Assembly: GCA_033812795.1 (NCBI GenBank)
Contig: JAPXSY010000008.1
Coordinates: 12,496 to 76,495 of the forward strand
Origin: Kiritimatiellia bacterium
GTDB taxonomy: Bacteria; Verrucomicrobiota; Kiritimatiellia; RFP12; UBA1067
Length of the DNA: 64,000 nt
Direction of reading: 5' to 3'
Notes under the pieces: model-generated
Database searches by the model: none
The model's input: the letters and a program-made list of their open reading frames with translations, nothing else
Told to the model about the DNA's origin: nothing
Program-made: the position numbers and the translations under genes
In this document: one piece after another, positions 24,739 through 58,825 of the stretch
Position numbering within the stretch: position 1 is the stretch's first letter
Layout: every line of letters starts with the position of its first letter

Positions 24739-26838
24739 ATGAATGTTGAAAAAGTCCTGACACTGTCCGTTCTGGCGGCCGCTGTCTGCGCCTTGTCCGG
24801 GTTTGCCGCAGACGGTGCGCCGACGGCGAAAATCAAGCCGTGCGCAGGTTCCGAGATCCGTCAATTCGCACCCGGCGAGCGGCTGTTCTTCGACCGGCAT
24901 TTCGTCATTTCCAAAAAGGTTGCGCTGCAGCTCGTGGGCAAGTCCTTTGTCTACGCATCCATCAACGGCATCTCCTTCCGGGTGACGCAGTCCGGGGAAA
25001 TTTTGGCGCTGACGCCGCCTGCGGAGTTCACCGACAAGGGCGGCAAGCCTTCGCAAGAATCGGAACTGAAGAAGCTCGGGTTCGCGGAGGTGAATGACAT
25101 TCCCGTCTCGCAGCTCTTCAACACGTCCGACAAGGAGAAGGTCCGCGTCTGGCGCAAACAGGTGAAAGAGGGCGAACGCTACGAACTCGACTACTGGTGC
25201 GTCATCGCGGGGTTCGATCCCAAGCCGGCCGTAACCGTGAAGAAGGACGTCCCGCGCGAGACGCTGTATAACGGGATCGTCCTCGAGACGGATCCGCGTG
25301 ACCGGACTGATATGCGCAAGTACGGACGCTATCCGCTGCCCGTGCCGTATCTGGACAATCCCCCGGCAGTAATCCCCGTGGATGCCGGGCGTCAACTTTT
25401 CGTGGACGACTTCCTCATCGCCTCGACCACAATGGTGCGCACTTGGCATAAGGCGCAGAAGGATCCGAAGAACCCGGTGCTCCGTCCCGAGACCCCGCTC
25501 GAGCGCGGTGCGCTCGGGCCGATCAAAACGCCGATGGCAGCGCCCTTTTCCGGCGGCGTGTGGTTCGACGCGACGGACAGGCTCTACAAGTGCTGGTACT
25601 GCGCGGGCTGGTTCGACGGAACGGCGTACGCGTATTCCAAGGACGGCTACAACTGGGAGCGCCCGGTGCTCAAGGTGGACGGCAAGACAAACCGTATCGT
25701 GAAGCCCGAGACGCGGGACGGCAAGAACTGTCATCGCGACTCCGCCGCAGTCATCCTCGACCCGGACGCGACGGACGGCAACCGCTTCAAGGCGTTCATT
25801 TGGTCACGTCCCCAAGGCGGCGAGATTTTCACGTCCGCGAACGGCACGGACTGGGAGTGGCGCGCCGCCTGTGCCTGGAGCGGTGACCGCTCGACCCTCT
25901 TCTATAATCCGTTCCGTAAGGTATGGTGCTACTCGCTGCGCGACTTCTGGTCTGCCCGCTCGCGCCAGCTTGCCGAGAGCAAGGACTTTGTCGCGGGTGT
26001 CGCCTACACGAACCGCGTCTGCTGGCAACGCGCGGACTGCTGTGATCGGCGTGACATGCGCTGGGTCTACTGCGAGGAAGGCAACTACGAGAAGGAACCG
26101 CCCGAGCCGTCCCTCTATAACCTCGATTGTGTCGCCTACGAATCGTTGATGTTGGGCGTGTACGCGATCATGTCCGGAGCGGACAACAGCGAGTTCCAGC
26201 GTCGGGGCTCTCCCAAGCTCACCGAACTCCACCTCGGCTTCAGCCGCGACGGCTACCACTTCTCGCGTCCCGAAGACCGTTCGCCGTTCATACCCGCGTC
26301 CCGCACATACGGTGCGTGGGACCGCGCTTATCTGCATTCGAACGCGGCGATCTGCCTTGTGAAGGGCGACGAGCTGCTCTTCTATTACACGGGCTTTGCG
26401 GGACAGATCGGGGAGTGGAAAGACCATCCGGTCGGAGGGCTTTACACGCTCGCGCAGATGGGTATCGCGCGCCTGCGCCGGGACGGCTTCGCCTCAATGG
26501 ATGCCGGCCGTTGCGGAGGCGAACTCGTCACGCGTCCGATCCGCTTCACCCGGGGCGACCGCCTCTTCGTGAACGCGAATGCCGCGGGCGGCGAGCTTAA
26601 GGTCGAGATTCTGGATGAGGATGGCCAAGCTCTTGCGGCTTCCAAGCCATTCACGGCGAATGCCGTCAAATCGGAGATTCTCGGCGGACTTTCCTCTTAC
26701 GCGGGCAAAACCATTCGTCTTCGCTTCACCGCCCGCGATACGCAACTTTACGCATTCTGGTTCTCCGACGCCTCAGGCCGGTCCCGCGGTTATCTCGCCG
26801 GCGGCTCTCCCGAGGCGGACGGCCTCAAGGACGAGTGA
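24739..26838 (+). CDS. secreted protein with beta-propeller glycosidase-like features (GH43/GH32/GH117-like fold); function unknown
   Basis: 699 aa with signal peptide MNVEKVLTLSVLAAAVCALSGFA. The 'WFDATDRLYKCWYCAGWFDGTAYAYSKDGYNWERP' blocks are of the kind seen in 5-bladed propeller GHs. No diagnostic catalytic motif could be confirmed by eye. Confidence 0.3.
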   Translation: MNVEKVLTLSVLAAAVCALSGFAADGAPTAKIKPCAGSEIRQFAPGERLFFDRHFVISKKVALQLVGKSFVYASINGISFRVTQSGEILALTPPAEFTDKGGKPSQESELKKLGFAEVNDIPVSQLFNTSDKEKVRVWRKQVKEGERYELDYWCVIAGFDPKPAVTVKKDVPRETLYNGIVLETDPRDRTDMRKYGRYPLPVPYLDNPPAVIPVDAGRQLFVDDFLIASTTMVRTWHKAQKDPKNPVLRPETPLERGALGPIKTPMAAPFSGGVWFDATDRLYKCWYCAGWFDGTAYAYSKDGYNWERPVLKVDGKTNRIVKPETRDGKNCHRDSAAVILDPDATDGNRFKAFIWSRPQGGEIFTSANGTDWEWRAACAWSGDRSTLFYNPFRKVWCYSLRDFWSARSRQLAESKDFVAGVAYTNRVCWQRADCCDRRDMRWVYCEEGNYEKEPPEPSLYNLDCVAYESLMLGVYAIMSGADNSEFQRRGSPKLTELHLGFSRDGYHFSRPEDRSPFIPASRTYGAWDRAYLHSNAAICLVKGDELLFYYTGFAGQIGEWKDHPVGGLYTLAQMGIARLRRDGFASMDAGRCGGELVTRPIRFTRGDRLFVNANAAGGELKVEILDEDGQALAASKPFTANAVKSEILGGLSSYAGKTIRLRFTARDTQLYAFWFSDASGRSRGYLAGGSPEADGLKDE

Positions 26839-28496: not shown

Positions 28497-29978
28497 ATGA
28501 AAACGTGCATTGCGGTCATGTTGGGGCTCGCTGTAACGGTGACGTTCGCGGACGGGACCAAGGCCTATGCCAGACCCGGTTCGGATGGCGGGCCGTTGTA
28601 CACCGCGCGCGGGGATGCGCCGCGGATCGCAAAAATGATCACAGAAGCCCAAGCGGCGGGACGGCGCGAGGTGGTGATTCCATATCGCAATGACGCGGCC
28701 AACGACGACAAGTGGATCATCGAGGAGACCGTGCTGATCCCGTCTGGCATGAAAGTGATCCTGGACGGCGCGCGCCTCGTGCAGGCGGACGGGGTTTGTT
28801 GCAATCTTTTCGCGAACGAGCACGCCTGGACGGACGACCGGTGTACGGCGAAGGCCGAGGATCGCGATATCGCGATCGAGGGCCGCAACGGAGCCACGCT
28901 GGACGGCGGCAACTGGAACGGTCTGGGCGAGCGATCGAAGCCGCCCGAACTCGCCGGAAAGCGGCTTGTCCACAACTGCTTCGTCTACTTCCATAACGTT
29001 AAAGGGTTCAAGGTCTCGGGGCTCAAATGCCGCCATCAGCGCTACTGGGCAACCTGCTTCAGCTTCTGTGAACAGGGCGTCATCCGCGATCTGCGCTTCG
29101 AGGCGGACATCTCTTGGGTGAGCGAGGACGGCAGGGATCATCGACCCAACCGCTTGCCCGGTAAATACGTGAACCTTTGGGTGAAAAACGGTGACGGCGT
29201 CAATTTGCGCAAGGGCTGCCACGACATCGTTGTCGAGAACATCACCGGCTGGACAGAGGACGACGTGGTCGCGCTCACCAACCTCTGCGGCGAGGAGATG
29301 AAAGACATCGTCGAAGGCAAGTCGACCGACATCCATCACATCACCGTCCGCAACATCCGTGCGGGGACTTGGCTCTGGTTTAATCAGGTGCGGCTTCTCT
29401 GTTGCGACGGTGCGAAAGTGCATGACGTCGTCATCGACGGGGTGCATGACGAGTACGATCCGAGTTGGATGAACTGGCAACGCAACGCAAGCGCCGTGCA
29501 GATCAACGACAGCGCTGAAGAATACTACCGCAAACGCAACTGCGCGATGGGCGAGATGCGCGACATCGTCATCCGTAACGTCACCTCCGGCGCCGGGTTC
29601 CCAATCCGCCTGTTCTGTCCCATGCAGAACGTCACCATCGAGAACCTGCACCTCCTTCCCGGCGCGAAGGGCGCGCTGGCCGTGCAGTGTGACGCCGAGT
29701 TCGACAACGTGACCGTATCCGGGATCACTGCGGACGAGACGGTCCGCCTCTTCAGCTTCCTCAACTTCCATCAGGCGGAGGGCGCGATCACCGTCCGCAA
29801 TGCCCGGGTGCCGGAGGCGGAACACCTCATCCGCAACAGCGGCACGTGCCAGGTGACGCTCGAGAACGTTGAGATCGGCAAGCTGAACGGCGAACGCGAA
29901 ATCAAATCCTGCGGCGGACACTGGATCGGCGACAAGGTGCCCTTGTATCAAGACCTCAAGCCCGGGACGCGTCCGTGA
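28497..29978 (+). CDS. pectin-lyase-fold glycoside hydrolase, GH28-like
   Basis: 493 aa with a signal peptide. 'NGDGVNLRKGCHD' and 'GWTEDDVVALTN' resemble the GH28 NTDG / G(D)D / GHG motif order in a beta-helix context. Confidence 0.4.
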   Translation: MKTCIAVMLGLAVTVTFADGTKAYARPGSDGGPLYTARGDAPRIAKMITEAQAAGRREVVIPYRNDAANDDKWIIEETVLIPSGMKVILDGARLVQADGVCCNLFANEHAWTDDRCTAKAEDRDIAIEGRNGATLDGGNWNGLGERSKPPELAGKRLVHNCFVYFHNVKGFKVSGLKCRHQRYWATCFSFCEQGVIRDLRFEADISWVSEDGRDHRPNRLPGKYVNLWVKNGDGVNLRKGCHDIVVENITGWTEDDVVALTNLCGEEMKDIVEGKSTDIHHITVRNIRAGTWLWFNQVRLLCCDGAKVHDVVIDGVHDEYDPSWMNWQRNASAVQINDSAEEYYRKRNCAMGEMRDIVIRNVTSGAGFPIRLFCPMQNVTIENLHLLPGAKGALAVQCDAEFDNVTVSGITADETVRLFSFLNFHQAEGAITVRNARVPEAEHLIRNSGTCQVTLENVEIGKLNGEREIKSCGGHWIGDKVPLYQDLKPGTRP

Positions 29979-30044
29979 CCCTGATCGTTGCCCATCGCGG
30001 CGAACCCCCACATCCCCGGCCTGCACGGGAAGCGGATTCGCAAA

Positions 30045-30072
30045 CTCTAAGCCATGAACAAGAATGATCTGA
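30045..30072 (+). promoter_or_regulatory. conserved 28-nt element CTCTAAGCCATGAACAAGAATGATCTGA, copy 1; it contains the start of a 9-codon uORF (MNKNDLRRR) that ends in an ATGA overlap with the esterase start
   Basis: 26 of 28 nt are identical to 33458..33485. The ATG sits at 30054. The uORF stop TGA overlaps the ATG of the 30080 gene. Confidence 0.5.
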
Positions 30073-30079
30073 GGAGACG

Positions 30080-31738
30080 ATGAAGACATTGACGATCGTC
30101 GCGGCGGTGTGCGCGCCGGCCGTTCTGCTGGCGGGGCTCTCGGTCAGTCCCGTGTTCATGGACAACATGATCCTCCAGCGCGACAAGCCGATCCCCGTCT
30201 GGGGAAGGGGCGAGGCAGGGAAAGAGGTGACGGTCGACTTCGCGGGCGCGCGGGCACGGGCAACCGTGGACGCGGACGGGCGCTGGGCGGCGACGCTGCC
30301 GGCGCTCGGCGTGTCGAACGATGACCGGACGATGACCGTGACGATGGGCGAAAAACAAGGCTTCTTCGCAAGGCTCTTCGGCTGTGCGCCCGAAGGCGAG
30401 CGCGTCACGTTCGCGAACGTGCTCGTGGGCGATGTCTGGCTCTGCTCGGGCCAGTCCAACATGGAATACTCGTTCTGCTGGTGGCCGTACTCCATGGACC
30501 TCTCGAAGGCCTTCTGCACGAACACGCCGAACTTCCGCTATTTGCGCGTGGCGCGCCACAAAGCGCCCGTGCCGCGCGAAACGCCGGAGATACAGGGCAA
30601 GTGGAGTGTGCTGACGGGGCAGGTGTGGTTCACGGCCTCGTGCGTCGGCTGCTTCTTCGCGCAGACCGTCATGGAGAAAACCGGGAAAAAGATACCGATC
30701 GGGCTCATTGACTCGAGCTGGGGCGGCATGAACATCGAACCGTACATTGACCCGACGTGCCTCCGGGACGACGACCCGAAGGCGCTGAAGGCGATCAAGG
30801 ACCGCTACGACGAAAACGCGAACCCGGCGACCGCCAAGGGCCGGATGAAATGGGACGCGTACCTCGCCCGGCAGAAGGCGTTCGTCGCGGACATCGAGGC
30901 GGCGGTCGTCGACGGCCGGCCGCCGGCCGGCGATCCCGCCGAAGTCCCCGTCTCGCACACCTACTGGAACGGCTGCTACCAGGCGATGATCCATCCGTTC
31001 GCGAAGTATCCGGTCAAGGGCGCGCTCTGGTACCAAGGGTGCGGCAACTATCCGGATAACGAGAACTACCAGTATCTCCTGGAGGGCCTCGTGCGCGGCT
31101 GGCGCGAGGCGTGGGGGTACACGTTCCCGTTCTACTGGGTGCAGCTCTCGTCCTTCGACAACAAGGGTGTCGTCGACGACGCGCCGGCGGGCGGACTCGG
31201 GTTCACGCGCGTCCGCGAGGGCATGCGCCGCGCGATGGCGACCATTCCACACGGCGGCATGTGCGTGACCTTCGACCTTGGCGACCCCAAGGACATCCAT
31301 CCGCGGGAAAAGCTGCACGTCGGCCAGCGTCTCGCGCAGTGGGCGCTTAAGAACGAGTACGGCTTTGACGACATCGTGCCGTCGGGGCCGAATTACCGCG
31401 CGATGAAGATTGAGGGTGACAGAATCCGTCTCTCATTCGACTACGTCGGGTCGGGCCTCGCCGTCGGCTACAAGAACAACTTCGACGACAGGGACGTGAA
31501 ACTCATGCCCGAGGCGAAGTTGAGCGGATTTGCGATCGCAGGCGAGGACCGCACATGGTTCTTCGCCGACGCGGTCATCGACGGCGACACGGTTGTCGTT
31601 TCGTCGAAGGACGTGAAGAAGCCGGTCGCGGTGCGCTACGCTTATCGCACGTCGCCGATCGGCGCGAACCTCTACAACCGGGAGCTTCTTCCCGCTTCGC
31701 CGTTCTGTACGGACGATTGGGAGAGGGAGAAGAAGTGA
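30080..31738 (+). CDS. SASA-domain (sialate O-acetylesterase-like, SGNH) carbohydrate esterase
   Basis: Signal peptide MKTLTIVAAVCAPAVLLAG. 'VGDVWLCSGQSNMEYSF' is the GQSNM catalytic-Ser block of the DUF303/SASA family. A GGAGA RBS is present. A 9-codon uORF ends in an ATGA overlap with the start. Confidence 0.7.
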   Translation: MKTLTIVAAVCAPAVLLAGLSVSPVFMDNMILQRDKPIPVWGRGEAGKEVTVDFAGARARATVDADGRWAATLPALGVSNDDRTMTVTMGEKQGFFARLFGCAPEGERVTFANVLVGDVWLCSGQSNMEYSFCWWPYSMDLSKAFCTNTPNFRYLRVARHKAPVPRETPEIQGKWSVLTGQVWFTASCVGCFFAQTVMEKTGKKIPIGLIDSSWGGMNIEPYIDPTCLRDDDPKALKAIKDRYDENANPATAKGRMKWDAYLARQKAFVADIEAAVVDGRPPAGDPAEVPVSHTYWNGCYQAMIHPFAKYPVKGALWYQGCGNYPDNENYQYLLEGLVRGWREAWGYTFPFYWVQLSSFDNKGVVDDAPAGGLGFTRVREGMRRAMATIPHGGMCVTFDLGDPKDIHPREKLHVGQRLAQWALKNEYGFDDIVPSGPNYRAMKIEGDRIRLSFDYVGSGLAVGYKNNFDDRDVKLMPEAKLSGFAIAGEDRTWFFADAVIDGDTVVVSSKDVKKPVAVRYAYRTSPIGANLYNRELLPASPFCTDDWEREKK

Positions 31739-31783
31739 GAATGGGAATTGGGAAACAGGAATAAGGAAACGAGGAGATTCAGG

Positions 31784-33382
31784 ATGAAGAAGACATGGAT
31801 TATTGGTTGTTCGATGGCAGCGTTCGCGGCGATGGCGAACGTGAAACCGGCGAATGTGTTCTCGAGCAACATGGTGCTCCAGCGCGATAAGGTCGTCCCG
31901 GTGTGGGGCACGGCCGATGCTGGCGAAGAGGTCAAGGTCTCGTTCGCGGGGCAGTCCGTTGCGGCGAAGGCCGATGCCGACGGCAGGTGGGAGGTGAAAC
32001 TCCAGCCGATGCCGGCCTCGAAGGAGAACCGGACGATGGTGATCGAGGGCAAGAACAAGATCGAGTTCAAGGACATCCTCGTCGGCGATGTGTGGCTCTG
32101 CTCGGGGCAGTCGAACATGGAGATGAGCTTCAACTGGGGCATCTACGACGGCGAGGCCTTCAAGAAGGAGGCGGCCGAGAAGTTCGACCCGATCCGCTGC
32201 GTGAAGGTCTCGAAGATCCACTCAACGTGGCCCAAAGCCGATGTGAAGCTCGATCATCCTTGGGCCCGTACCACCGCGAACGGCGGCATCGCCAACTGGA
32301 CGGCGACCGGCTATTTTTTCGCGCGCAGGCTTGTCCAAGAGTTGGACATCCCCATCGGCATCCTTGACGACAACTGGAGCGGTTGCCGGATCGAGCCGTT
32401 CATCCCGCTCTCGTCGTTCAAGAACTACAGCGCAACGAACGGCGCGTACGCCAAGCAGGTTAAGAGCTTTCTGGAGCTTCAGGAGAAGACCGATCCGCGC
32501 ACGGAGGCGGGCCGGAAGGTGTTCGCGAAGTACGCCGCAGAGATGAAGGCGTTTCTCGCGGCGGTCGAAGCGGCCGTCGCGGAGGGGAAGCTCCCCGAGG
32601 CCGACATGCCGGTGCTGCCGAGTGTCAGCGCGACCTCGCAGTACAACGCGATGATTGCGCCGATCGTGCGTTTTCCGATCGCCGGCGCGATCTGGTATCA
32701 GGGTTGCTCGAACGGGCAGGAGGGCGAGTCCTACACCGAGAAGACCGAGATGCTCGTCAAGGGCTGGCGCGAGGCGTGGGGTTATGAGTTCCCGTTCTAC
32801 TGGGTGCAGCTCGCGTCTTTCACGGCGAAGACAGACGATCCGAAGGGCGGCAACGGCTATGCGCTCATCCGTGACGCGCAACGCCTTGCGCTCAAGCGTC
32901 TGGAAAAGACGGGCATGGCGGTCACGATTGACGTCGGCAACGACAAGGACATCCATCCGAAGGCCAAGGTGTTCGTGGGCGAGCGTCTCGCGGCGTGGGC
33001 ACTCAAAGGCGCGTATGGCCGGGACGTCGTCCCCTCGGGTCCGCTTTTCAGGAAAGCGGAGGGGCTCGGCACGGCCGAGGTGACGCTGTCATTCGACTAC
33101 GTCGGCGGCGGTCTCACGGCGGGTGAGAAGGACAATCTCTCCAACGCGCCCGTCAAGCTCCTCCCCGACGCGAAGCTCGTCGGCTTCGCGGCCGAGGTCG
33201 AGGGCGGACAGTTCGTCTGGGCCGATGCGAAGATCGCGGGTGACAAGGTCGTCGTGACGGCCGGCGGCAAGACGATCCGGAACGTCCGCTACGGCTATCG
33301 CGCCAACGCGACGGGTCTTGCCAATCTCTACAACCGTGAAGCGTTGCCGGCTTCGCCATTTGCCACTGAAAACAAATGGTAA
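31784..33382 (+). CDS. SASA-domain carbohydrate esterase (paralog)
   Basis: Start at MKKTWIIGCSMAAFAAMA with RBS AGGAAACGAGGAG. 'VGDVWLCSGQSNMEMSF' is present. ~45% identity by eye to 30080..31738. Confidence 0.7.
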   Translation: MKKTWIIGCSMAAFAAMANVKPANVFSSNMVLQRDKVVPVWGTADAGEEVKVSFAGQSVAAKADADGRWEVKLQPMPASKENRTMVIEGKNKIEFKDILVGDVWLCSGQSNMEMSFNWGIYDGEAFKKEAAEKFDPIRCVKVSKIHSTWPKADVKLDHPWARTTANGGIANWTATGYFFARRLVQELDIPIGILDDNWSGCRIEPFIPLSSFKNYSATNGAYAKQVKSFLELQEKTDPRTEAGRKVFAKYAAEMKAFLAAVEAAVAEGKLPEADMPVLPSVSATSQYNAMIAPIVRFPIAGAIWYQGCSNGQEGESYTEKTEMLVKGWREAWGYEFPFYWVQLASFTAKTDDPKGGNGYALIRDAQRLALKRLEKTGMAVTIDVGNDKDIHPKAKVFVGERLAAWALKGAYGRDVVPSGPLFRKAEGLGTAEVTLSFDYVGGGLTAGEKDNLSNAPVKLLPDAKLVGFAAEVEGGQFVWADAKIAGDKVVVTAGGKTIRNVRYGYRANATGLANLYNREALPASPFATENKW

Positions 33383-33457
33383 GGCGTTCGCATCGCACTC
33401 CTGTCTGTGTATTGCGGCAGAGCGATGGCCGCATGGATACTCAACCACTGAAACAAT

Positions 33458-33485
33458 CTCAAAGCCATGAACAAGAACGATCTGA
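33458..33485 (+). promoter_or_regulatory. conserved 28-nt element CTCAAAGCCATGAACAAGAACGATCTGA, copy 2; here the ATG is fused in frame to the downstream gene
   Basis: Same element as copy 1. The ATG at 33467 is the only available start of the 33467..35353 ORF. Confidence 0.5.
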
Positions 33486-35353
33486 CAAATGCAGCACACC
33501 GGATTTGCAACGCTGACACCTTCGGCACCGGTCACAAGACGATTCGGCTTGCCGTTTTCGCGGTATCGGTTCTGACGGCGGCCGCACCCTGCGTACAGGC
33601 GGCTGAAGTCACGCTTGACTACACGTATATCGACGGACGTACCCGTCGCGAGAAAATGCCGCTCGATAGCGAGAACCGGCTCGTCGTCAAGGCAGACCAT
33701 ATCGGACCGGGCGTGAAGACACTTGATGTCGCGCCCGATTTCGCGACGGCGAAAAAGGGCGAAGACGGCTACTTCCTCATGCCGGACGGCCTTTACGGTA
33801 CGTTCCGTGCGGACAACGGAAAATTCTATCCTGCCGCGCGCAACTACCATCCGCTCTTCATCATGAAGACACCGCGCGTGAATTTCATGGCGCATGCGAC
33901 GGGTCTGGCCTATTCGTACGAGACGCATGTTGTCGCGAAGAACGGCGGATACCGTCTCTTCAACCGCTACAACTTCAACGGCGATCCCCCCTATGAGGAT
34001 CTTGTCATCCGCTTCCGTTTCGGCGCGGCGGATGTGTCTTGGTGCGCGTTCGCGCGCGAATACCGCGATGATCAACTGAAGCGTGGCGCATGCAGACCGA
34101 TTAACGAGCGCATGAAAGACTTCCCCGCGCTCGCGTACGCCGCGACGAACATCGAGGTGCGGCTGCGGCTGGGCTGGAAACCCGTGCCCGCGAAAGTGCG
34201 TGACCAGACGCCGTTCACCGAACCGCCCGTCAAGGTGGCGATTACATTCGACCGTTGCCGCGACATTATGCGGGAATTCAAGCGGCAGGGCATTCCCGAG
34301 GCCGAGTTTTGCCTTGTCGGTTGGAACAAGGGTGGACACGACGGGGCCTATCCGCAGCTCTTCCCTGTCGAACCGAAGATGGGCGGCGAGACGAAGCTCC
34401 GCGCGCTGTTGAAGGATGCGAAGACAATGGGCTTCCAGACCGTCGCGCACAACAACTATTCGGACGCATACCTGATCGCGGACTGCTTCGACGAGGAGTT
34501 CACGCTAAAAAAGAAGGACGGATTGCCCAAAACGGCTGGAACGTGGGGCGGCGGCTTCCAGTACCTGACGTGTCCGCAACGGATGTGTGAGCGCTTCCTC
34601 GTGAAGGATCTGGAGATGATGCGTGATCTCGGGTTCTTCGGACTCCACTATACCGACGTCATCGCGTCCCAGCCGCTCAGGAAATGTTACGACCCGAGGC
34701 ATGCGATCAACGAGGCCGACTGCATAAAATGGTACGCGCGCATCCAGTCCGAAACGAAGAAGCGTCTCGGGGGCTTTGCGTCAGAGGGCATCTTCGACTA
34801 CTGTGTCGGCGACCTCGACTATTGCCTATACGCCTACTTCTACAAGCTCGTACCGGGCGAACTGAACAAGATGGTAGACCGGCACGTGCCGCTCGCCCAG
34901 ATCATCTACAACGGCATCGTTCTCATCAATCCTTTCTGCGGCACGGTCAACTATACGATCAAGGACAACGTGAAGCGCCTCAAGCTTGTCGAGTTCGGCG
35001 GACGTCCGATTTTCTATTTCTATACGAACTTCGTCGAAGGCTTCCGCTGGATGGGTGATGAGGACTTCACGTGTGCGACCGACGCGGAACTGACGGCGTC
35101 AGTCGCCAAGATCAAGCAAGGATATGACGAGTTCTGCCGTCTTTCCGATCTGCAGTTCGTCTTCATGGACGAACACGAGTATCTCGCGTCGAATGTGACT
35201 TGCACGACCTACGCGAACGGGACGAAGGTGATCGTCAATCACGGAACGGCTGATTTCCCTTACAAAGGTGAGGTCGTTCCGGCTGGCGACTGGCGTCGGT
35301 TTGATTCAACAGAAGGGAACCCCGTCGCTTCCCTTCTGCGGTCAGATCGTTAG
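33467..35353 (+). CDS. secreted hypothetical protein, possibly a TIM-barrel glycosidase-like fold
   Basis: 628 aa. The only in-frame start is the ATG inside the conserved 28-nt element, giving an unusually long N-region before the hydrophobic core (..IRLAVFAVSVLTAAAPCVQA). No family motif was recognised. Confidence 0.35.
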   Translation: MNKNDLTNAAHRICNADTFGTGHKTIRLAVFAVSVLTAAAPCVQAAEVTLDYTYIDGRTRREKMPLDSENRLVVKADHIGPGVKTLDVAPDFATAKKGEDGYFLMPDGLYGTFRADNGKFYPAARNYHPLFIMKTPRVNFMAHATGLAYSYETHVVAKNGGYRLFNRYNFNGDPPYEDLVIRFRFGAADVSWCAFAREYRDDQLKRGACRPINERMKDFPALAYAATNIEVRLRLGWKPVPAKVRDQTPFTEPPVKVAITFDRCRDIMREFKRQGIPEAEFCLVGWNKGGHDGAYPQLFPVEPKMGGETKLRALLKDAKTMGFQTVAHNNYSDAYLIADCFDEEFTLKKKDGLPKTAGTWGGGFQYLTCPQRMCERFLVKDLEMMRDLGFFGLHYTDVIASQPLRKCYDPRHAINEADCIKWYARIQSETKKRLGGFASEGIFDYCVGDLDYCLYAYFYKLVPGELNKMVDRHVPLAQIIYNGIVLINPFCGTVNYTIKDNVKRLKLVEFGGRPIFYFYTNFVEGFRWMGDEDFTCATDAELTASVAKIKQGYDEFCRLSDLQFVFMDEHEYLASNVTCTTYANGTKVIVNHGTADFPYKGEVVPAGDWRRFDSTEGNPVASLLRSDR

Positions 35354-41107: not shown

Positions 41108-44100
41108 ATGAATGTCGAAAAGGTCGTGGCGACCGTGGCGATTGCCGCGGGTGTGTGCTTTGCGGCGAATGCCGCAGAATGGAAGACGCTTCGGGACCTG
41201 CCGGTTTCGGCGGTAGGGAATGCGGCGTATCTGACGTCGATGACGGAGCGGCCGTGGTGGAACAAGGCGTGGACGCGGCGGACACCGATTCTGGTGTCGT
41301 CCGCGGCAAAAGCGTCGTGCGGCAAGATCGTGGTGGACGCTGTCGTCGACTTCGGGGAACAGGTGAACCCCGCCGAGGTGCGTTTGGTCACGCCCTGGGA
41401 AACCGAGGTTCCGTGTTGGGTCGAGGCGAAGGAAGGGACGAAACTCGAACTCTACTTCGAGACCGACCTGCGCATCGAGGAGAACCGCCCCTTCCTCGTC
41501 TACTGGGGCAATCCCGCGGCAAAGGCGCCGGACTTGTGGCCGACGATGACGATGCGGGTGAATGACGAAGAGGTGCGCATCGCGAACGGCGTCCTTGACG
41601 TCACCTTCGATAACCTTCACCGCACCAGCGGTCTTCTGAAGAAAATCCGCGTTCTGGCGTCCCAGACGCCGAATGAACTCCTCGACCGCGCCTCCGGTTT
41701 TGCTTGGGACGGTTTTTCGCTCCGTTCCGGCGCCGCCGAACCGTGGTCGAAGGCCAAGGTCGTTGCGGACAATCCCTTCAAGAAGCAGATCCGCTTCGAC
41801 AGCAAGAAGGTTACGCTGGACTTCACGCTTTACGCCAATCAACCGCGTGTGGACTACGCCTACACGCTCAAGCCAGGCAATGAACAGGCGAACATCAGCA
41901 TCTCATGGGCCTGTGGCGACGGGACGGGGGAGGACGATCTTTTCTATCCCGGCCTCGCGGGCAAGGTGCTGTCGCTCCGCGCTTCGCTCGACCATGCGAC
42001 GGACTGCATTCCCAACCCCCACTACGAGGGGCTGGGGAAGTATCTGGCGGAGGGCTGGTACGCGATCCGTGACCGCAAGCAGCATGAGGTCGTTGGCATG
42101 ATCTTCGACCGCCCCACTCTCGCATCCTTCGATTACAGCGGCGCGGGACAGTACGCGGGCGAGCGCTCGGTCATGACCTTCCGCCACCAAACCGAAAAGG
42201 ACAGGCCCGTCGGCGGTTCGGGTGCGCTCGTCGCGCTGATGGGCGGGGTGGACGATGTGCGGAATGAGTACCTGCGCTACTGTAAAGCGCCGATCATCTC
42301 CGTCGGCAAAACCGAGGCATACCGCGAAATCGCGGTGCGGCGTCCGCGGATTGACCGCGACTTCTGTGCGGACTATAACATCGGCAAGGGCGCAGGCGCG
42401 GGATGGGAGTCCGGCGAGCCGCTCGAAGGTGGCGAGTGGTGTTCGAACATCGTCGACCGCGTCCGTTCGCTCGGCGGCAACATCGTGCGCATCGGCGGCT
42501 ACGGGTGGCAGGATCTGGCGATCACGAAGGAACTTTACGACCGGATCGCGAAGGTGTGGGCCCTCCCGACCTCGCGCTCCAGGAATCGGAAGATGCCCGA
42601 GTGGCAGGAGGGTCAGTACACCGGTGAGAAGTTCCGCCAACATTGCGCGGCCGCGCATGCGAAGGGCGTGGCGGTCAGCCTGTGGTCCGGCTTCGTCCCC
42701 GGCGTCGGCTTCGACAATGACATGCTCTGGGACAAGGATGCGCAGGAGCTCGATACCGAGCTTCAGTGCCTTTACGCCGACCTCGGGGCGGACATCATAT
42801 ACAACGCCATGGCGTGCCGCGAGGGCGCGCATATTCCAACGGACGTCATAAAGGGACGCGGTACCTCGTGGTGGCTCTGGGACGATCCGCGCGACTTCTT
42901 TAAGACCGAGGATATCCGCACCGAGGCTATCAAAAAGTTCTACCGCGATTGCAAGCGGCGTCATCCGGACACGCCGGTCGTCGTCATGAACTCCGAATGC
43001 TCGATCATCGAGCGCGAGACCATGATGACGGATCAGGTCGGCGCGTTCGACTCCGTCTATTGTGAGATGCTCCCGCTCTGTGACAATCCGCGCACTCTGC
43101 CGCATACGAAGATGGCGGTGAAACGCCTGCGGGCGCTTTACGACAACGAGGCGGGACGGACCGTCCACGCTCATTTCTACTACTACGGACACGATTGCGT
43201 GCAACGCATCCTGCAGGTCGAGCTTCCCTACGTCTGGGGCATCAACGGCTTCACCTTCGAGAACCTCACCTACGAGAACTTCGGTAAGGAGCAGCCGAAT
43301 ATCACGGCGGACGCCTACCGCTTCCTAGAATACACCAAGCTCGGCGACAAGGTCGCAAGGATGGCGCCCGTGAAGGATCTCGCCGTCTTCCGCGACAACC
43401 GCGCTTACGTTGACGACGTCATCAACCACCGCCGCGGCAAGCCGTATGCCTACAGTACGCAGCAGGACGGACGCGCCAACGCCATCGCGGAGATCCGCAA
43501 CTGCGTCTATGACATCGTGATCGATCCGTTTTTCACCGCCAAGGCGCTCGCGAAATACCGCGCCGTCTACGTGCCCGAAGACCTTTCCTTTGGCGAAGAC
43601 CGCGCGAAGGAGCTGATCGGGTACGTGCAGGCCGGCGGCGGTGCCATTGTCGAGGGCCGGACCGTCGAGGGTAACGGTCTGTCGAAGCTCGGGCTTACGG
43701 ACGGGAAGGTGACGGATCTCGGCAAGGGCAAAATCGTCTGGCTCAAAGACGTTCTCACCGACCGCCTTGCGCGTCGCGACGCGAAGGCGTTCGCGCAGGC
43801 AAAGGAGCTGATGGCGTCTGTCGGCTGCCTCGCGCCGTTCACGCTTCCGTCCAAGACGCTCGATGCCAACCTTCAGATTTCCGAAGAAGGCATGTTCCTC
43901 GGCGTCTTCAACGATGGCAAGGAGGAAGACAAGGGGAGGGCGACCCTAAACCTCTCACACCTTCCAAACTTCTCGCACCTCTCAAACCCGCTTTACGTTC
44001 TCGACGTGAAGCGCGGCGTGCGTTTCCGCTATACGAATGGCTTCGAGGTTGTGGTGGGACCGGAGCAGTGCGGCTACTACCTCATCGGCGATGAGAAGTT

Positions 44101-44950
44101 CACAGCGCTGCCGGAGACGTCCGGCGGAGCATGGTTTGGCGCTTCCGCCTCACATGTCGGCGAACCTGGGAGGGGCTGCAAGATGCCGGTGCTCGACCGT
44201 TCCGAAGCGTTCCCGCGCGTCCATGCGCTGGAGTATGTGCGCGGTTCGGAGAAGAAGCCGACGATGATCCGCAGATCGATGCTGGCGGCGTTCGACATCA
44301 AGCAGGTCACACCCGATGCCTACGATCCCTCGCTGTTCGCCGCAGCCATCCGCAAGGCGACGTACCTGCACCTCTGCGCCAATGCCAAAGGCGCGGACCG
44401 GGCGTTCGCAGACTGCCCGGAGGAACTGAAGGCGATGCTCAAGCGCGGCGGAGCGATCCTTTTCGATCGTACGCGTCCAGGACCGAACGCGCAGAAGTTC
44501 CTGAAAGAGATCGGCGTTTTCGACCCCTATCCGTCCGCCAAGACCAAGATCGGCGACGGGAAATCCGTATGGGACGAGACCTTTCCGTCCAACCACCTCC
44601 TCTCGGCCTTCAACCGTGTTAAGGAGGGTTATTTCGGCAACGATTTCATCCGTCGGCTCGGCAGGGACGGCGGCCGTTACAATCTGGCGTTCGGCCAGTG
44701 GGATGCGGAGACACAACTCACGCCATTCCGCGCCGCGCTCAACAAGGATTACACGCACCTTATCATTCAGGAGCACGTGCTCGGCGCAGGCAAGGTTGCC
44801 TTCAACGAGAACGCGCGCTCGTTCAACGACTGGTACGAGTCGAAGATGTATGGCGACGCGCTCCTGTCGTGGCTCATCGGGATGCCGGTCAAGGACTATA
44901 AGGACAAGGCCGAACGCTACAATGGCGGACCCGGGAAAGCGGTGGAGTGA
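41108..44950 (+). CDS. giant secreted multidomain protein, paralog C (GH42-like architecture)
   Basis: 1280 aa with signal peptide MNVEKVVATVAIAAGVCFAANA. It has the same conserved blocks as paralogs A, B and D. 'YRAVYVPEDLSFGEDRAKELIGYVQAGGGAIVEG' is the trimerisation-like block. Confidence 0.6.
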   Translation: MNVEKVVATVAIAAGVCFAANAAEWKTLRDLPVSAVGNAAYLTSMTERPWWNKAWTRRTPILVSSAAKASCGKIVVDAVVDFGEQVNPAEVRLVTPWETEVPCWVEAKEGTKLELYFETDLRIEENRPFLVYWGNPAAKAPDLWPTMTMRVNDEEVRIANGVLDVTFDNLHRTSGLLKKIRVLASQTPNELLDRASGFAWDGFSLRSGAAEPWSKAKVVADNPFKKQIRFDSKKVTLDFTLYANQPRVDYAYTLKPGNEQANISISWACGDGTGEDDLFYPGLAGKVLSLRASLDHATDCIPNPHYEGLGKYLAEGWYAIRDRKQHEVVGMIFDRPTLASFDYSGAGQYAGERSVMTFRHQTEKDRPVGGSGALVALMGGVDDVRNEYLRYCKAPIISVGKTEAYREIAVRRPRIDRDFCADYNIGKGAGAGWESGEPLEGGEWCSNIVDRVRSLGGNIVRIGGYGWQDLAITKELYDRIAKVWALPTSRSRNRKMPEWQEGQYTGEKFRQHCAAAHAKGVAVSLWSGFVPGVGFDNDMLWDKDAQELDTELQCLYADLGADIIYNAMACREGAHIPTDVIKGRGTSWWLWDDPRDFFKTEDIRTEAIKKFYRDCKRRHPDTPVVVMNSECSIIERETMMTDQVGAFDSVYCEMLPLCDNPRTLPHTKMAVKRLRALYDNEAGRTVHAHFYYYGHDCVQRILQVELPYVWGINGFTFENLTYENFGKEQPNITADAYRFLEYTKLGDKVARMAPVKDLAVFRDNRAYVDDVINHRRGKPYAYSTQQDGRANAIAEIRNCVYDIVIDPFFTAKALAKYRAVYVPEDLSFGEDRAKELIGYVQAGGGAIVEGRTVEGNGLSKLGLTDGKVTDLGKGKIVWLKDVLTDRLARRDAKAFAQAKELMASVGCLAPFTLPSKTLDANLQISEEGMFLGVFNDGKEEDKGRATLNLSHLPNFSHLSNPLYVLDVKRGVRFRYTNGFEVVVGPEQCGYYLIGDEKFTALPETSGGAWFGASASHVGEPGRGCKMPVLDRSEAFPRVHALEYVRGSEKKPTMIRRSMLAAFDIKQVTPDAYDPSLFAAAIRKATYLHLCANAKGADRAFADCPEELKAMLKRGGAILFDRTRPGPNAQKFLKEIGVFDPYPSAKTKIGDGKSVWDETFPSNHLLSAFNRVKEGYFGNDFIRRLGRDGGRYNLAFGQWDAETQLTPFRAALNKDYTHLIIQEHVLGAGKVAFNENARSFNDWYESKMYGDALLSWLIGMPVKDYKDKAERYNGGPGKAVE

Positions 44951-44952
44951 AA

Positions 44953-47900
44953 ATGATGAACAAAATCATGGCGGCCCTTGCGGTCGCCTTTGGGGTTTTC
45001 TCCGCCCTCGCGGCGGAGACGGTCGAACTCAAGGCGAAGCCGACGGTGACGCCGGTTGAACTCAACTTCGGTGACACCGTGAAGTTCACGCTCTTGAACG
45101 GAGAGACGCGGACGATCCGGCTTGTCGACACCTCCGCGCAGATCATCGAGATCCCGACTGTGGAAGGGCTCGTTTTCATGTTCGACGTGACGCTCGAGGT
45201 CGATGGCCACCGCGTCAAGATCGACCGCTATACTGCGACGCAACAGGCGTTCTACGAGCCGATTGTCATCAACGGCATGCGTATCTGGGCGGATATGGCG
45301 CTCAGTGTCTACGATGTGATCCCGATGCGTTATCCCGGCACCGGCAACCAGCGGCAGCGTCCGTGGAAGGATATGCGCCTTGCCCTGCAGGATGCGACAA
45401 TCGAGGATTGTCCGGTCAAACTCTCGAAGTGGTTCGACTACCGGCACCCCTCGATCTTCATCGGCGACTGCTATCACGGCGGCGATTGCTGGATGGGATC
45501 CTTCGGTGCTGGCGTTGCGCATGGCGGCCTCGACGTGAACCAGCGCGAGGGCGACCCGCTCTGGGCACCGATGGACTTCGACGATCAGGGCTACTTCCAG
45601 TCGCTCGCCACAGGCAGCAACAACAACCGTTGGCGCGGCTGGCGCACCTGGCCGGACGGTTCGATCTGGGCGTTCCAGTGTCACCATGTCATCACGCAAT
45701 ACGTCGCGCAGGGTATGAGCGTCAAGCAGGGGACGCATCTTTTCGACGGTGCCGGCGTCTGGGTCGGCTGGTATAACCACAACCACTACGAGTTCAAGGT
45801 CGCCAACGGCAAGATGCCGGATTGGAATGCGGGCGGAAGGAATAGCGCGGATGGACGCGGCGGCCGTGCGCTCGAACACGGGCAGCCCGAGGTCTACCAT
45901 CTTGATCCGTGGATCTACTTCCGCCAGATCTTCCGTAACGAACGCGAAAAGACGGGCTACGTCTATCCTGAGATGGCGCCGCCCGGTCCAGCGAAGACGG
46001 CCGAGGCGGTCGTTTTCGAACTGACGAAGGGCGGATCGGATGATGTCTATTGGGACTTTGGCGACGGCGCGTTCGGACGCGGCGCGAAAGTGACGCACCG
46101 ATATGCGAAGCCCGGCCTCTATGCGGCACGCGCAGTCATCGTGCGTGAAGACGGCTCACTCGATGAGGTGATCCGCCATCTGACTGTGAACGGTGCGGCA
46201 AGTCTGCTGCCGTCGCTGATCGTCCAGTCGGACGACCATCGCTTCCGCCCCTGGCCGACGGGAACGCAATACGCTTTCGGTTACGATCTCGTCAACTACC
46301 GCCCGGGCGGTTTCGAAATCAAGGCACCGATCGGACAACGCAATCTTCCGACGGAATCGCGCACGTTCCGCTTCGCGAACGCTGGCGGCGGCGTGTTGCC
46401 CCCTATCGCCGCGGCACTTTCCGAGCCGTGTGACTGGATCGTCCTCCAGCCGACTGCGGACGGCGTCACGTTCACGGTCGATCCGATGAAGGCGAAGGAC
46501 GGCGTCAACGAGGCGGCGATCGTGCTCAAGGGTGAAGGACTCCTGAACGGTGAGGTCACCGTGCCGGTACGGCTCGCTAAAGTGAAGTGCGGTTACTACA
46601 CCGGAAGTTTCCGTCTCGATAGCAATGCGCATACGTGCTTTTACGCTACGCCCGGTTTTTGGTGTTCGCACCGATTGAGCGGAAGCAAGCGGTATTACAA
46701 GATGTCCGGCAACCGTCCCGAATCGGACGCCATCGCGCGTTTCATCCCCGAACCGATGGCAGCGGGCACCTATCGTGTACGCGTGGACGGTGATGCGCCC
46801 TGGGCGGCCGGCAGCAAATGTTGGGTGGATGTCAAGGATGCGGCCGGCCTTCATCGCGTCCGCTTCGAGCCCGCGAAGTCCTGGACGGTCGGCACTTTCC
46901 GGTTTGCGGCGGGCGGCGGCAATTACGTCGAGTTCCGCACGCAAGACAGCGTCGGCAGCGTCGCCGTGAACCATCTCGCGTTTGATCGCCTGCCCGACAC
47001 CCCGCCGGTCGCCAAGGCGCCGTACGTTCCTGAAACGATCGAGCTGAAGGCGAAACCGACGGTGACGCCCGTTGAAATGAACTGCGGCGATGTAGTGAAA
47101 TTCACGCTCCTCAATGGTGCGACACGCACACTCACGCTCATTGGCACCTCGGCGCGCATGGCCGCATGTACGACCACGGAGACGATCCTGGGCTTCGATG
47201 CGACGCTGGAGATCGACGGACACCGCGTGACATTCCAACGCAACACATGCGAGCCCGAGGCGTTCTATGAGCCGTTCGTCGTGAACGGACTGCGTATCTG
47301 GCCCGATATGGCGCTTAAGATTTTCGACGTCATGCCGATGCGGCAGGCATGCGAAGGCAACGGCCGGCGGCGTCCGTGGAAGGATCTGCGCCTTGCCCTG
47401 CAGGATGCGACGATCGAAGACTGTCCGGTCAAACTCTCGAAGTGGCTCGAGTATCCGCGTCTGGCGCCGAGTGTCAACGATGGGCGTGTCGGCGGCATGT
47501 GCTGGATGGGTTCCTTCGAGGGGCATCACATCCATGGCGGTCTCGACATCCGTCAGCAGCCGGACAAGACGGCGCTTTCGGCACCGCTTGATCTGGACGA
47601 TCAGGCACCGTTGCCGGAAAGGACGAAACATTCGCGCGAGGGCCGCTGGCGTGGCATCCGGAAATGGGACGATGGATCGGTCTGGGCGTTCGAGTGCCAT
47701 CACATCGTGACGCAGTCCGTCCCCGCGCATGTGAGCGTCAAGCAGGGAACGACGTTCCTGACAGGCGGCAAGCCGCATCCCGGCCACCATATGCACACGC
47801 ATTTCGAGTTCCGTGTCGCCAACAACGGAATGCCCGACTGGGACGCGAGCACCTATGCGCGTGACGGCGGAGCGGGGACGCGCGCGCTCGAACACGGCCA

Positions 47901-49030: not shown

Positions 49031-50143
49031 ATGAAAAGCAGAATACTGATGGTGGCGATATTGGCTGCGGTCAGTAAGGGAATGGCGGCTAGGACATCGC
49101 GTGTCTTCGGCGATAACATGGTCCTTCAAAGCGGTCGTCCGATACCCGTGTGGGGCACGGGCGAGGTCGACGAGACCGTATCCGTCGCGTTCGGCGGCAA
49201 CACCGCATCATGCCGGGTCGGTGCGGATGGCAAATGGCAGGTCGTCCTCAAGGCCGAGAGCCCTGCGGTGGCACCGCGCGAACTGACGATCACCGCGGCA
49301 TCGGGTGCGCAGACGTTCAAAAATGTGCGCGTCGGCGATGTCTATATCATTATGGGCGACCGACATGTTGGCTGGCCGTTCTGGTCGGTCGGCGCGGAGA
49401 TCAAGACGGATCTCGATCGCTACGCCGACACAAACCTCTGCTACTTCATTTCGCCCATCCAGCGGCGCGCGTCGTATCCGCTCGATGACCTCGAACCGCC
49501 GACGCCGCATGCCGGCTTCTGGCGCAGTGTCGTCAACAAGGATCGGCTTAGCTCTTTCGCCTACTTCTATGCGCGCGAACGCGCCGTGAAGACGAAGATG
49601 CCCGTTGGCGTCATCGTTGTGACCGGCGGGGCGTACGATCGTTGTGATGCGCGTATGTTCATGCGCCCCGAGGCCTATGCGGCCAGTCAGAACGACAAGG
49701 GCAATCCGCAGGCATATGACGCGCTCAACCCGACATCCGAGAAGGGGCTCGCCGCGCTCAAGGAGGCGGCCGCCCGCATTCAAACGTGGGCCGATGACGC
49801 GCTCGCGCTTCCACAGGGTGAATATCCCGCTTCCAACATGCCTGAGTTGCCGAATCTGGAGAAGTATGGACAAGTCACTACGCATTACAACTACCAGATG
49901 TCGCCATTCGCCAAGACGCCGATCAAGGGCGCGGTGTTCTATGCGGGCTACGGATGGGGATACGACCCGAAAGAAGCGCCGCTCGCCGAAGAACTGAAAA
50001 CCGACATGCGCCGTGTCTGGGGCGACGACATCGCGTTCACCATCGTTCCGGTACCGGAGAAGACCGTGATGGAAGGGGATTGTCCCTCAGAATGCAACAA
50101 GCCGCTGGAAGTCGTCCGCAATCTGGACGCGTCGAACAAATGA
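49031..50143 (+). CDS. truncated, degenerate SASA-like protein lacking the catalytic GQSNM motif (likely pseudoenzyme)
   Basis: 370 aa with signal peptide MKSRILMVAILAAVS. The N-terminal 'VFGDNMVLQSGRPIPVWGTGE..' is homologous to the SASA paralogs. At the catalytic position, 'VGDVYIIMGDRHVGW' replaces 'VGDVWLCSGQSNM'. AGGGGAGAACAGGACAAGGAA RBS region. Confidence 0.5.
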   Translation: MKSRILMVAILAAVSKGMAARTSRVFGDNMVLQSGRPIPVWGTGEVDETVSVAFGGNTASCRVGADGKWQVVLKAESPAVAPRELTITAASGAQTFKNVRVGDVYIIMGDRHVGWPFWSVGAEIKTDLDRYADTNLCYFISPIQRRASYPLDDLEPPTPHAGFWRSVVNKDRLSSFAYFYARERAVKTKMPVGVIVVTGGAYDRCDARMFMRPEAYAASQNDKGNPQAYDALNPTSEKGLAALKEAAARIQTWADDALALPQGEYPASNMPELPNLEKYGQVTTHYNYQMSPFAKTPIKGAVFYAGYGWGYDPKEAPLAEELKTDMRRVWGDDIAFTIVPVPEKTVMEGDCPSECNKPLEVVRNLDASNK

Positions 50144-50162
50144 CAGGAGATCGAGGAAGACG

Positions 50163-58281: not shown

Positions 58282-58367
58282 GGTAGGGTACCGAAGTGGC
58301 CAAACGGGGCAGACTGTAAATCTGCTGGCGGACGCCTTCCTTGGTTCGAATCCAAGCCCTACCACCA
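58282..58367 (+). tRNA. tRNA-Tyr (anticodon GTA), long variable arm, encoded CCA
   Basis: The 7-bp acceptor stem GGTAGGG pairs with CCCTACC. The anticodon loop is CTGTAAA. A long variable arm and a T-arm GGTTCGAATCC are present. Discriminator A is followed by CCA. Confidence 0.85.
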
Positions 58368-58400: not shown

Positions 58401-58825
58401 TTTTCTCGGGCTGAACTCCTCCTTTTTGCCGCCCCCATCCCCCCGCTTCCCGTCTCCCGTCCCTTTCTACCCTCTCATTGCGTTCAGCCCAATAAGCATT
58501 GACTTTTGTTGAGAACCCCGCCGCACCTGTTTGGCGCAGGACGCGGCGGTGCGTCCGACGCTCTTTTTGAACTCTTAGTCCCGGCACTTTGTCGGTTGCA
58601 CTTCGTCGCAAGCGCAATCGACTGAGTTTTGGAGACCGGTGCGTATGCGGGACTAAGGCGTCCGCGGACGGTTCGGGGAACCGTCCCTACCAGCGGGCGG
58701 GGACACCCGCTTCTCCCGTCAGACCTTATGTCGCCCCGCGACCCGCGACGAGCGACCTGCGGTGTCGGAAACGCGGGTGTCCCTGTCGATCGTCGCGGGT
58801 CGAATGTCGCGGGTCGCGGGGCGAC

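Follow-up and report, generated by a model that had tools for sequence, protein, structure and literature searches.

Starts without a Shine-Dalgarno sequence, lying on unstructured, A-rich regions, have been described for the Bacteroidota and for other taxa that rarely use Shine-Dalgarno sequences. The start of a DUF5696 gene in an uncultured Kiritimatiellia of anaerobic digesters resembles these in being predicted to be unpaired and A-rich, with the lowest folding of the starts in its neighborhood, but most genes there use a Shine-Dalgarno sequence and this start is the exception. It lies in a short element with a second copy upstream, and each copy invites comparison with other described systems. 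As in start-codon turnover by recruitment of an upstream in-frame ATG, the ancestral methionine site has neither ATG nor Shine-Dalgarno sequence and the n-region of the signal peptide has been lengthened; here, however, the recruited start is more than former 5' UTR, in that its first 32 nt copy a sequence found 3.4 kb upstream. The arrangement of the two copies recalls attL/attR, integron attC and Xer/pdif sites, with short direct repeats flanking a discrete promoterless module that has varied contexts in relatives, but there is no recombinase, dyad symmetry or site polymorphism here, and the repeats are not identical. The upstream copy opens a 9-codon uORF that overlaps the next gene as ATGA and contains that gene's Shine-Dalgarno sequence, much as in leader-peptide uORFs (ATGA coupling; the erm/cat type); these differ from the present case, which shows no alternative RNA structures and a uORF that is unconserved, has no Shine-Dalgarno sequence and has a geometry to be expected by chance, since 5 of the 26 starts in the window have it. 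Finally, the first six codons are like those of HU/IHF-family genes (MNKNDLI...), often in the same nucleotides, but there is no HU domain here and the upstream 13 nt are not shared, and the relationship is only a candidate one.

The window, by which we mean the whole 64,000-nt stretch of DNA that was analysed, carries a long series of secreted CAZyme genes. The features around the two copies are collected in Table 1.

Table 1. Features of the GH28 to DUF5696 region, in window coordinates.
Feature	Position	Strand	Remarks
GH28-like gene, upstream of copy 1	28497..29978	+	Pfam PF00295
Spacer after GH28, 62 nt, unique sequence	29979-30040	+	blastn-short: no other match
Copy 1 of the 32-nt element	30041..30072	+	CAAACTCTAAGCC ATG AAC AAG AAT GAT CTG A; directly abuts the SASA-1 Shine-Dalgarno sequence
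uORF MNKNDLRRR*, 9 codons, opened by the copy-1 ATG	30054..30083	+	TGA overlaps the SASA-1 ATG
GGAG, Shine-Dalgarno core of SASA-1	30073..30076	+	duplex dG -9.2 kcal/mol
SASA-1 esterase, 552 aa	30080..31738	+	Pfam PF03629; orthologues begin at the equivalent MKK... codon
SASA-2 esterase, 532 aa	31784..33382	+	42% identical to SASA-1
Spacer from SASA-2 stop to copy 2, 71 nt, unique	33383..33453	+	blastn-short
Copy 2 of the 32-nt element	33454..33485	+	CAATCTCAAAGCC ATG AAC AAG AAC GAT CTG A; holds the DUF5696 start codon
DUF5696 N-terminal extension, 24 codons, lineage-specific, orphan (MNKNDLTNAAHRICNADTFGTGHK)	33467..33538	+	
DUF5696 protein gene, 628 aa	33467..35353	+	Pfam PF18952, E 2.5e-40

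The preliminary description of this DNA had singled out a 28-nt element, CTCTAAGCCATGAACAAGAATGATCTGA at 30045-30072 and CTCAAAGCCATGAACAAGAACGATCTGA at 33458-33485, as nearly identical between unrelated flanks and as alike in its nucleotides, with no protein homology. Both statements were borne out: 26 of the 28 positions are identical, and the match runs 4 nt further upstream, giving 29/32. The element consists of a 13-nt A-rich leader, the ATG, five codons and one further base, 32 bp in all. The copies differ at three positions (30044 A/33457 T, 30048 T/33461 A and 30065 T/33478 C), the last of these being synonymous (AAT/AAC), and 11 of the 13 non-coding bases 5' of the ATG are identical. 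They stand in direct orientation, 3413 bp apart, bracketing the SASA-1/SASA-2 pair, and the gaps that they occupy, of 101 and 84 nt, are longer than any other between genes of the operon. Alignment of the flanking DNA and blastn-short searches with the spacers revealed no relation between the two surroundings, and the edges of similarity are sharp, within otherwise unrelated intergenic DNA. Because the flanks are unrelated, the copies do not belong to a larger recent duplication, the finding that the preliminary description had set against its own proposal.

None of 100 shuffles reproduced the match, none of 20 Markov shuffles yielded any 28-mer pair with two or fewer mismatches, and the pair is the only one of its kind in the window off the diagonals of paralogous genes. 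When 325 pairs of real gene starts were compared with the start codon as anchor, the best reached 20/28 (mean 12.5, sd 2.5), which places the element pair 5 sd above real start-region pairs. The reading in which two A-rich gene starts of the MNK type are alike by chance, MNK... being a common N-terminus, is effectively refuted by these results together with the matching upstream non-coding bases. An assembly artefact can likewise be dismissed, since both copies are present unchanged in independent assemblies of the same species (8, and later 10).

Of particular interest is the start of the DUF5696 gene. Its reading frame is bounded by an in-frame stop at 33449-33451 and has its next ATG only at codon 64; the ATG at 33467, initially called the only possible start, is more exactly the sole canonical in-frame start that keeps the signal peptide, whose h-region lies at residues ~26-45 with probable cleavage after VQA. 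The absence of a Shine-Dalgarno sequence before this ATG was correctly noted: its anti-Shine-Dalgarno duplex has a dG of +0.3 kcal/mol, as against -5 to -12 kcal/mol for most genes of the window. The region folds at -2.6 kcal/mol, the least structured of 27 starts, and is 45% A, and in these predicted properties (no pairing, low structure, A-richness) copy 2 has the make-up of an unstructured start without a Shine-Dalgarno sequence. The literature searched offered no relevant account of translation signals in the Kiritimatiellota. DUF5696 homologues are ~35 aa shorter, with a methionine that aligns to codons 22-25 of the present gene, and the orthologues carry a GAGGG or GGGGA Shine-Dalgarno sequence there, while the window gene has neither Shine-Dalgarno sequence nor ATG. 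Comparison with these relatives shows the loss of the ancestral Shine-Dalgarno sequence and ATG at codons ~22-25, and copy 2 is very probably the working translation start of DUF5696, by way of ATG 33467. The 24-codon extension has no relatives: an exhaustive HMMER search returned only low-complexity repeat proteins, and borrowing from another protein was rejected as its source. Nor is there a Pfam ESPR domain at the DUF5696 N-terminus, Pfam having found only DUF5696, GH101 and DUF6259.

In copy 1, the uORF has a geometry that would allow coupling to SASA-1. The overlap of its stop with the SASA-1 ATG (30080) as ATGA, pointed out at the outset, is evident from the sequence, and the position of the SASA-1 start is confirmed by the orthologue N-termini. 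The Shine-Dalgarno duplex of the uORF, however, reaches only -3.3 kcal/mol, and since SASA-1 has a strong Shine-Dalgarno sequence of its own, the uORF would be a by-product, or else couple weakly at most. It is probably incidental, and a leader peptide, as originally suggested, finds no support in it or in the frequency of its geometry. A longer former GH28 reading frame ending at the TAA within copy 1 was considered and discarded, as beyond its present stop the GH28 frame runs into another. A similar uORF of 8 codons is found in the SASA-4 leader, which scores 26 against the SASA-1 leader and is second among the 325 pairs; the score beats shuffles, but an unrelated real start pair scores 27, and homology of the two leaders is treated as borderline.

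SASA-1 and SASA-2 form a conserved two-gene module. They are in tandem in the related loci L156 and L157, with GH92 upstream and GH2 downstream, and both genes also occur in L154. The SASA-1 orthologues (69-75% identity) have different upstream genes and ordinary Shine-Dalgarno leaders, with neither the element nor a uORF, and the element is also absent upstream of the DUF5696 orthologues (72-80% identity), whose loci are not syntenic with this one. Both junctions, GH28/SASA-1 and SASA-2/DUF5696, were found in this species only, the relatives' SASA modules have no flanking repeats, and no third copy of the element is present in the ~84 kb of the species (~35 gene starts) or in the related loci. 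In one relative, L158, a leader similarity (CTAAG...AACAAGAA) was set aside as chance (p = 0.03, uncorrected for seven comparisons; its TAA is the stop of an unrelated upstream gene). Within the species, divergence in the population is at most 21 SNPs per 13.9 kb, as against 3/32 differences between the copies, from which the duplication would be older than the diversity of the sampled population; judging from the orthologous loci, it probably arose after the split from the relatives at 75-80% identity. No empty site or variant of alternative content with a breakpoint at the element was seen in ~24 population contigs from many samples. The one candidate for an empty site, L168, was rejected, being identical through the element and diverging ~720 nt inside SASA-1.

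Direct repeats around a conserved module, at two junctions specific to this species, point to an origin by rearrangement. The explanation that we favor, though at no better than even confidence, is that the element is a local duplication of ~32 bp, a rearrangement scar that contains a start without a Shine-Dalgarno sequence, and that its second copy has been reused as a start. The conserved SASA-1/SASA-2 pair would have arrived between GH28 and DUF5696 in this Kiritimatiellia lineage, in an event that left an identical 32 bp as a direct repeat on either side of it, while a breakpoint near the present codons 22-25 would have removed the Shine-Dalgarno sequence and ATG of DUF5696 itself. DUF5696 would now be translated from the ATG of the element, with 24 residues added before its signal peptide, and copy 1 would be a truncated duplicate of the DUF5696 start, its frame running for nine codons to the SASA-1 ATGA; the uORF would then be a by-product of the event, or a weak translational coupler at most. 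That one event produced the duplication, and that the DUF5696 copy is the original, is what the arrangement suggests. Counting against such a scar, the analysis identified no mechanism by which a 3.4-kb insert would come to be flanked by 32-bp direct repeats, neither a recombinase nor dyad symmetry nor, among the ~24 population contigs, an empty site having been found, and no intermediate relative (85-95% identity) is available for the ancestral arrangement.

The abruptness with which the similarity ends would be explained just as well if a functional 32-mer were preserved by selection. It is possible, though we think it rather unlikely, that the element is a functional shared start or regulatory module, either a portable initiation site lacking a Shine-Dalgarno sequence or a site recognized by a protein or an sRNA, which selection has kept ahead of both genes; copy 1 would load ribosomes onto the uORF coupled to SASA-1, copy 2 would start DUF5696, and the genes would be co-regulated in the long operon. 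Conservation at the nucleotide level amid unrelated intergenic DNA is what such a module would show, as are the placement of the copies in the operon's longest gaps, the A-rich, unstructured start region without a Shine-Dalgarno sequence, the overlap of uORF stop and SASA-1 start, and the score of the SASA-4 leader. Two other, unrelated genes of the window (at 24739 and 41108), with weak Shine-Dalgarno sequences, have their first six codons in common (MNVEKV), which hints that the sharing of start regions may recur and is possibly selected. The proposal of the preliminary description, a shared cis-regulatory module or regulator-binding site, is nevertheless unsupported by the wider evidence. 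The element is in no orthologous leader and has no further copies in the 84 kb; fold z-scores at the copies are 0.1-1.0, with no alternative hairpins; Rfam 15 recognized only one tRNA in the whole window and gave no match at E<=1 in 29900-30200 or 33300-33650; no promoter and no terminator-like site was found in the intergenic regions; and the window and its flanks hold CAZyme and housekeeping genes only, with no regulator gene near the element. The uORF geometry is common, an unrelated pair of starts scores at least as high as the SASA-1 and SASA-4 leaders, and SASA-1 already has its strong Shine-Dalgarno sequence. A broader form of the same idea, that Kiritimatiellia CAZyme operons contain short start cassettes without Shine-Dalgarno sequences, each made up of an A-rich leader, an ATG and some six codons, that are copied between unrelated genes, kept by selection and used to equip inserted or start-less genes, with the MNKNDL pair and possibly MNVEKV as instances, strikes us as speculative and unlikely.

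That the 32-mers are attL/attR-like sites of a mobilisable two-gene cassette (an att core, integron attC or Xer/pdif), served by a recombinase in trans, is improbable, even though direct repeats do flank a discrete module that begins at its own Shine-Dalgarno sequence and has other contexts in relatives. The element lacks dyad symmetry (its inverted arms reach 3 nt at best, just as in shuffled sequence, and complementarity in a dif-like 11-6-11 layout is at most 4/11), as well as the hairpin or terminal inverted repeats typical of REP, BIME or MITE elements. No recombinase is encoded in the window or within 10 kb on either side, and the element has no match in a collection of viral contigs. 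The lack of empty sites in the population and of repeats around the relatives' modules, the break of L168 inside SASA-1 and the three differences between the copies also speak against a cassette. Both copies might instead come from a third source, such as the 5' end of the organism's hup (HU) gene or a dispersed genomic repeat, a very improbable origin to which the usual start of HU-family genes, ATGAACAAGAAYGAYCTG(A), nonetheless lends some color. Of 116 metagenome matches to CCATGAAYAARAAYGAYCTG, in a collection that lies outside this species and whose returned loci do not include the window's own copies, 53 are HU-sized proteins starting MNKNDL[IVL]. None of these loci, however, shares the 13 nt upstream (over the 10 nt compared ahead of the pattern, the best of them agrees at 7), and neither reading frame at the present locus has an HU domain.

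The outcome favored here, a rearrangement scar, is unsurprising in principle, and would acquire greater weight only if the element, or six-codon cassettes like it, recur at many gene starts genome-wide. For annotation it would mean that the 24-residue extension is a real open reading frame and no miscall. If true, it would provide a clean small case of the reshuffling of a polysaccharide-breakdown gene cluster in an uncultured phylum, in which a borrowed ATG, itself lacking a Shine-Dalgarno sequence, rescued a gene that had lost its ribosome-binding site and start codon at a breakpoint.

The two 28-nt elements of the preliminary description were placed correctly and agree at 26 of 28 positions, and aligning the copies carries the match 4 nt further upstream, to 29/32 in total. 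Their flanks are indeed unrelated, neither resembling the other, the rest of the window or related loci. Shuffled sequences never reproduced the 26/28 match, and in what we judged a fairer null, the start-codon-anchored real start regions, 325 pairs average 12.5/28 (sd 2.5, maximum 20), against 26 for copy 1 and copy 2. These are also the sole 28-mer pair in the window (up to 2 mismatches) off the diagonals of paralogous coding sequence. Chance does not explain the match, and as a reading chance resemblance is extremely improbable. An assembly artefact is excluded, because independent assemblies (8, then 10, from JGI, ENA, NCBI and Logan) carry identical sequence for both copies. The repeat is real and, as proposed, does not reflect protein homology.

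Coordinates of the repeat and surrounding features (window positions unless a locus is named)
Feature	Position	Strand	Sequence or start
~1280-1300-aa family	299-4201	-	
~1280-1300-aa family	6990-10820	-	
~1280-1300-aa family	41108-44950	+	
~1280-1300-aa family	L160		
Start of 699-aa gene	24739-24756		MNVEKV
Start of 1280-aa gene	41108-41125		MNVEKV
Copy 1	30041-30072		CAAACTCTAAGCCATGAACAAGAATGATCTGA
Copy 2	33454-33485		CAATCTCAAAGCCATGAACAAGAACGATCTGA
1350-aa protein gene	44956-49008		
SASA-3/SASA-4 uORF	50140-50166		MTGDRGRR*
tRNA-Tyr	58282-58367		
Inverted repeat	58730-58825		
Restriction-modification pair	L159 17337-19207		
Starts of three L154 genes	2222, 3955, 7342		ATGAAGAAGGCAATGATGACG-like

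The sequence derives from uncultured Kiritimatiellia MAGs of anaerobic digesters (GC content ~61%), and the window holds a ~31-kb same-strand run of secreted carbohydrate-active enzyme genes: DUF5123/pectate-lyase-like, AXE1, GH28, four SASA esterases, DUF5696, GH32N/MGH1-like and GH16-GDSL, as well as large unannotated proteins. Most genes are preceded by a GA-rich Shine-Dalgarno sequence and encode a short signal peptide (MK...); the window includes no regulator, recombinase or transposase, and 28.4-35.5 kb contains no sigma-70-like promoter or terminator. Secreted proteins of ~1280-1300 aa lacking Pfam domains form a family of three or more members within the window plus two just beyond it, sharing blocks at 70-80% nucleotide identity, while the 1350-aa gene contains an internal ~2.0 kb tandem duplication (several repeat families, 2010-2031 nt spacing, 72-81% identity). 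Some 360 nt downstream of tRNA-Tyr sits a strong, GC-rich inverted repeat whose 32-nt arms are 88% complementary and enclose a 32-nt loop, possibly a terminator or repeat element, and a restriction-modification pair (N6_N4_Mtase and RE_XcyI) adjoins the CAZyme cluster ~5.7-7.5 kb past the window's right end.

Copy 2 starts 71 nt past the SASA-2 stop and includes ATG 33467, which had been called the only possible start of DUF5696 (628 aa). It is the sole start that retains the signal peptide, since an in-frame stop precedes it at 33449-33451 and no other canonical start occurs before codon 64. The reported lack of a Shine-Dalgarno sequence is borne out by the absence of anti-Shine-Dalgarno pairing (+0.3 kcal/mol); local folding energy is -2.6 kcal/mol (-30 to +30), the lowest among 27 starts tested, and the region is 45% A, all consistent with Shine-Dalgarno-independent initiation in an A-rich, unstructured region. 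We infer that copy 2 is the gene's working start. In the N-terminal alignment the homologues' Met falls at codons 22-25 of the present gene, where the DNA of one homologue, P0002, reads ATG ATA AGA (MIR) and the window ACG ATT CGG (TIR); orthologues have a GAGGG or GGGGA Shine-Dalgarno there and the window's gene has none. The ancestral start has been lost, and a breakpoint therefore lies at the extreme 5' end of DUF5696, the gene now probably starting within a foreign segment made up of the element and 53 unique nt. The MNKNDL extension is missing from all of ~120 DUF5696 homologues, which are ~35 aa shorter and begin with ordinary signal peptides, and an exhaustive protein search detected no relatives of the extension.

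Copy 1 lies within the 101-nt gap following GH28, its last base one base short of the SASA-1 GGAG. As described, ATG 30054 opens a uORF (MNKNDLRRR) whose TGA overlaps the SASA-1 ATG (30080). The SASA-1 start is secure because of its strong Shine-Dalgarno (duplex -9.2 kcal/mol) and three orthologues (69-75% identity) starting at the equivalent MKK... codon; the uORF has no Shine-Dalgarno of its own (-3.3 kcal/mol). Evidence of a role for copy 1 is weak. Upstream ATG-initiated ORFs ending in the main start's ATGA occur at 5/26 starts. Neither copy shows significant RNA structure (z = 0.1-1.0), and relaxing the Rfam search to E<=1 likewise brings up no match.

Set 3413 bp apart as direct repeats, the copies flank SASA-1 and SASA-2 (42% identity), an old two-gene module that is tandem in related loci L156 and L157, with both genes present in L154; its surroundings differ there, with GH92 on the upstream and GH2 on the downstream side in L156, whereas in L154 the neighbours are a carbohydrate kinase and a rhamnosidase. 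The leaders of SASA-1 orthologues are ordinary, with neither element nor uORF, and in L158 the gene upstream is unrelated to GH28. The closest DUF5696 homologues (72-80% identity) lack the motif and differ in gene context. Because orthologues differ in context and lack the element, both junctions (GH28/SASA-1 and SASA-2/DUF5696) are species-specific, and each carries one copy.

The shared cis-regulatory or initiation module originally proposed, here taken as maintained by selection, is retained as the main rival only and is rather unlikely. Some colour is lent to it by the borderline similarity of the SASA-4 leader to that of SASA-1 (its score of 26 ranks second among 325 pairs of start regions), and by two non-homologous genes with common first six codons, which form the window's second-best start-region pair (20/28). 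The similar SASA-4 sequence is an 8-codon uORF bridging SASA-3 and SASA-4: its ATG overlaps the stop of the former (ATGA), its TGA the ATG of the latter. In the two non-homologous genes the first 18 nt differ solely at synonymous sites, the signal peptides resemble each other weakly (14/27 aa), and Shine-Dalgarno sequences are weak or absent in both. Neither conservation nor multiplicity speaks for such a module, however: the element is absent from orthologous leaders, and no third copy (up to 11 mismatches in 32) was found in the window, ~20 kb of same-species sequence (L159/L160) or related Kiritimatiellia loci; a viral contig collection gave 0 matches to the element. On the related Kiritimatiellia contig L154, 26-29 nt of similar sequence recur at the starts (MKK.MM...) of three neighbouring genes for secreted enzymes that are otherwise unrelated, which may be signal-peptide convergence or 5'-end exchange.

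Because the repeats bracket a module, att, attC and pdif sites come to mind as parallels, but bracketing is the only likeness, every other compared feature failing. The 32-mer has no dyad symmetry, no recombinase lies nearby, relatives' SASA modules have no flanking repeats and ~24 population contigs include no empty site, so that a mobile cassette is improbable. Variant contig L168 (ERZ27249270 k141_845425) was rejected as an empty site: across GH28, the element and ~720 nt at the beginning of SASA-1 it is identical to the standard locus, and it diverges only inside that gene. Past ~30801 it carries an ADP-ribosylglycohydrolase and an MFS transporter; the contig is a chimeric assembly or else a genuine structural variant within SASA-1. 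That both copies came from an unseen third source, such as a hup gene, seems quite improbable. HU-family genes usually start with ATGAAYAARAAYGAYCTG and account for 53 of 116 matches to it in a metagenome collection (neither this nor the genome collection scanned includes the species), but in none of the HU-type loci does the similarity take in the 13 nt that precede the ATG.

The most economical account, which we hold with about even confidence, is a short local duplication. A lineage-specific rearrangement would have placed the SASA pair ahead of DUF5696 and left the duplication behind, the downstream copy being reused as the new DUF5696 start and the upstream copy persisting as a truncated relic that forms an incidental uORF. 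The copies differ at 3/32 positions and the population by at most 0.15%, and the event is therefore older than the sampled population's diversity but younger than the split from relatives of 75-80% identity.
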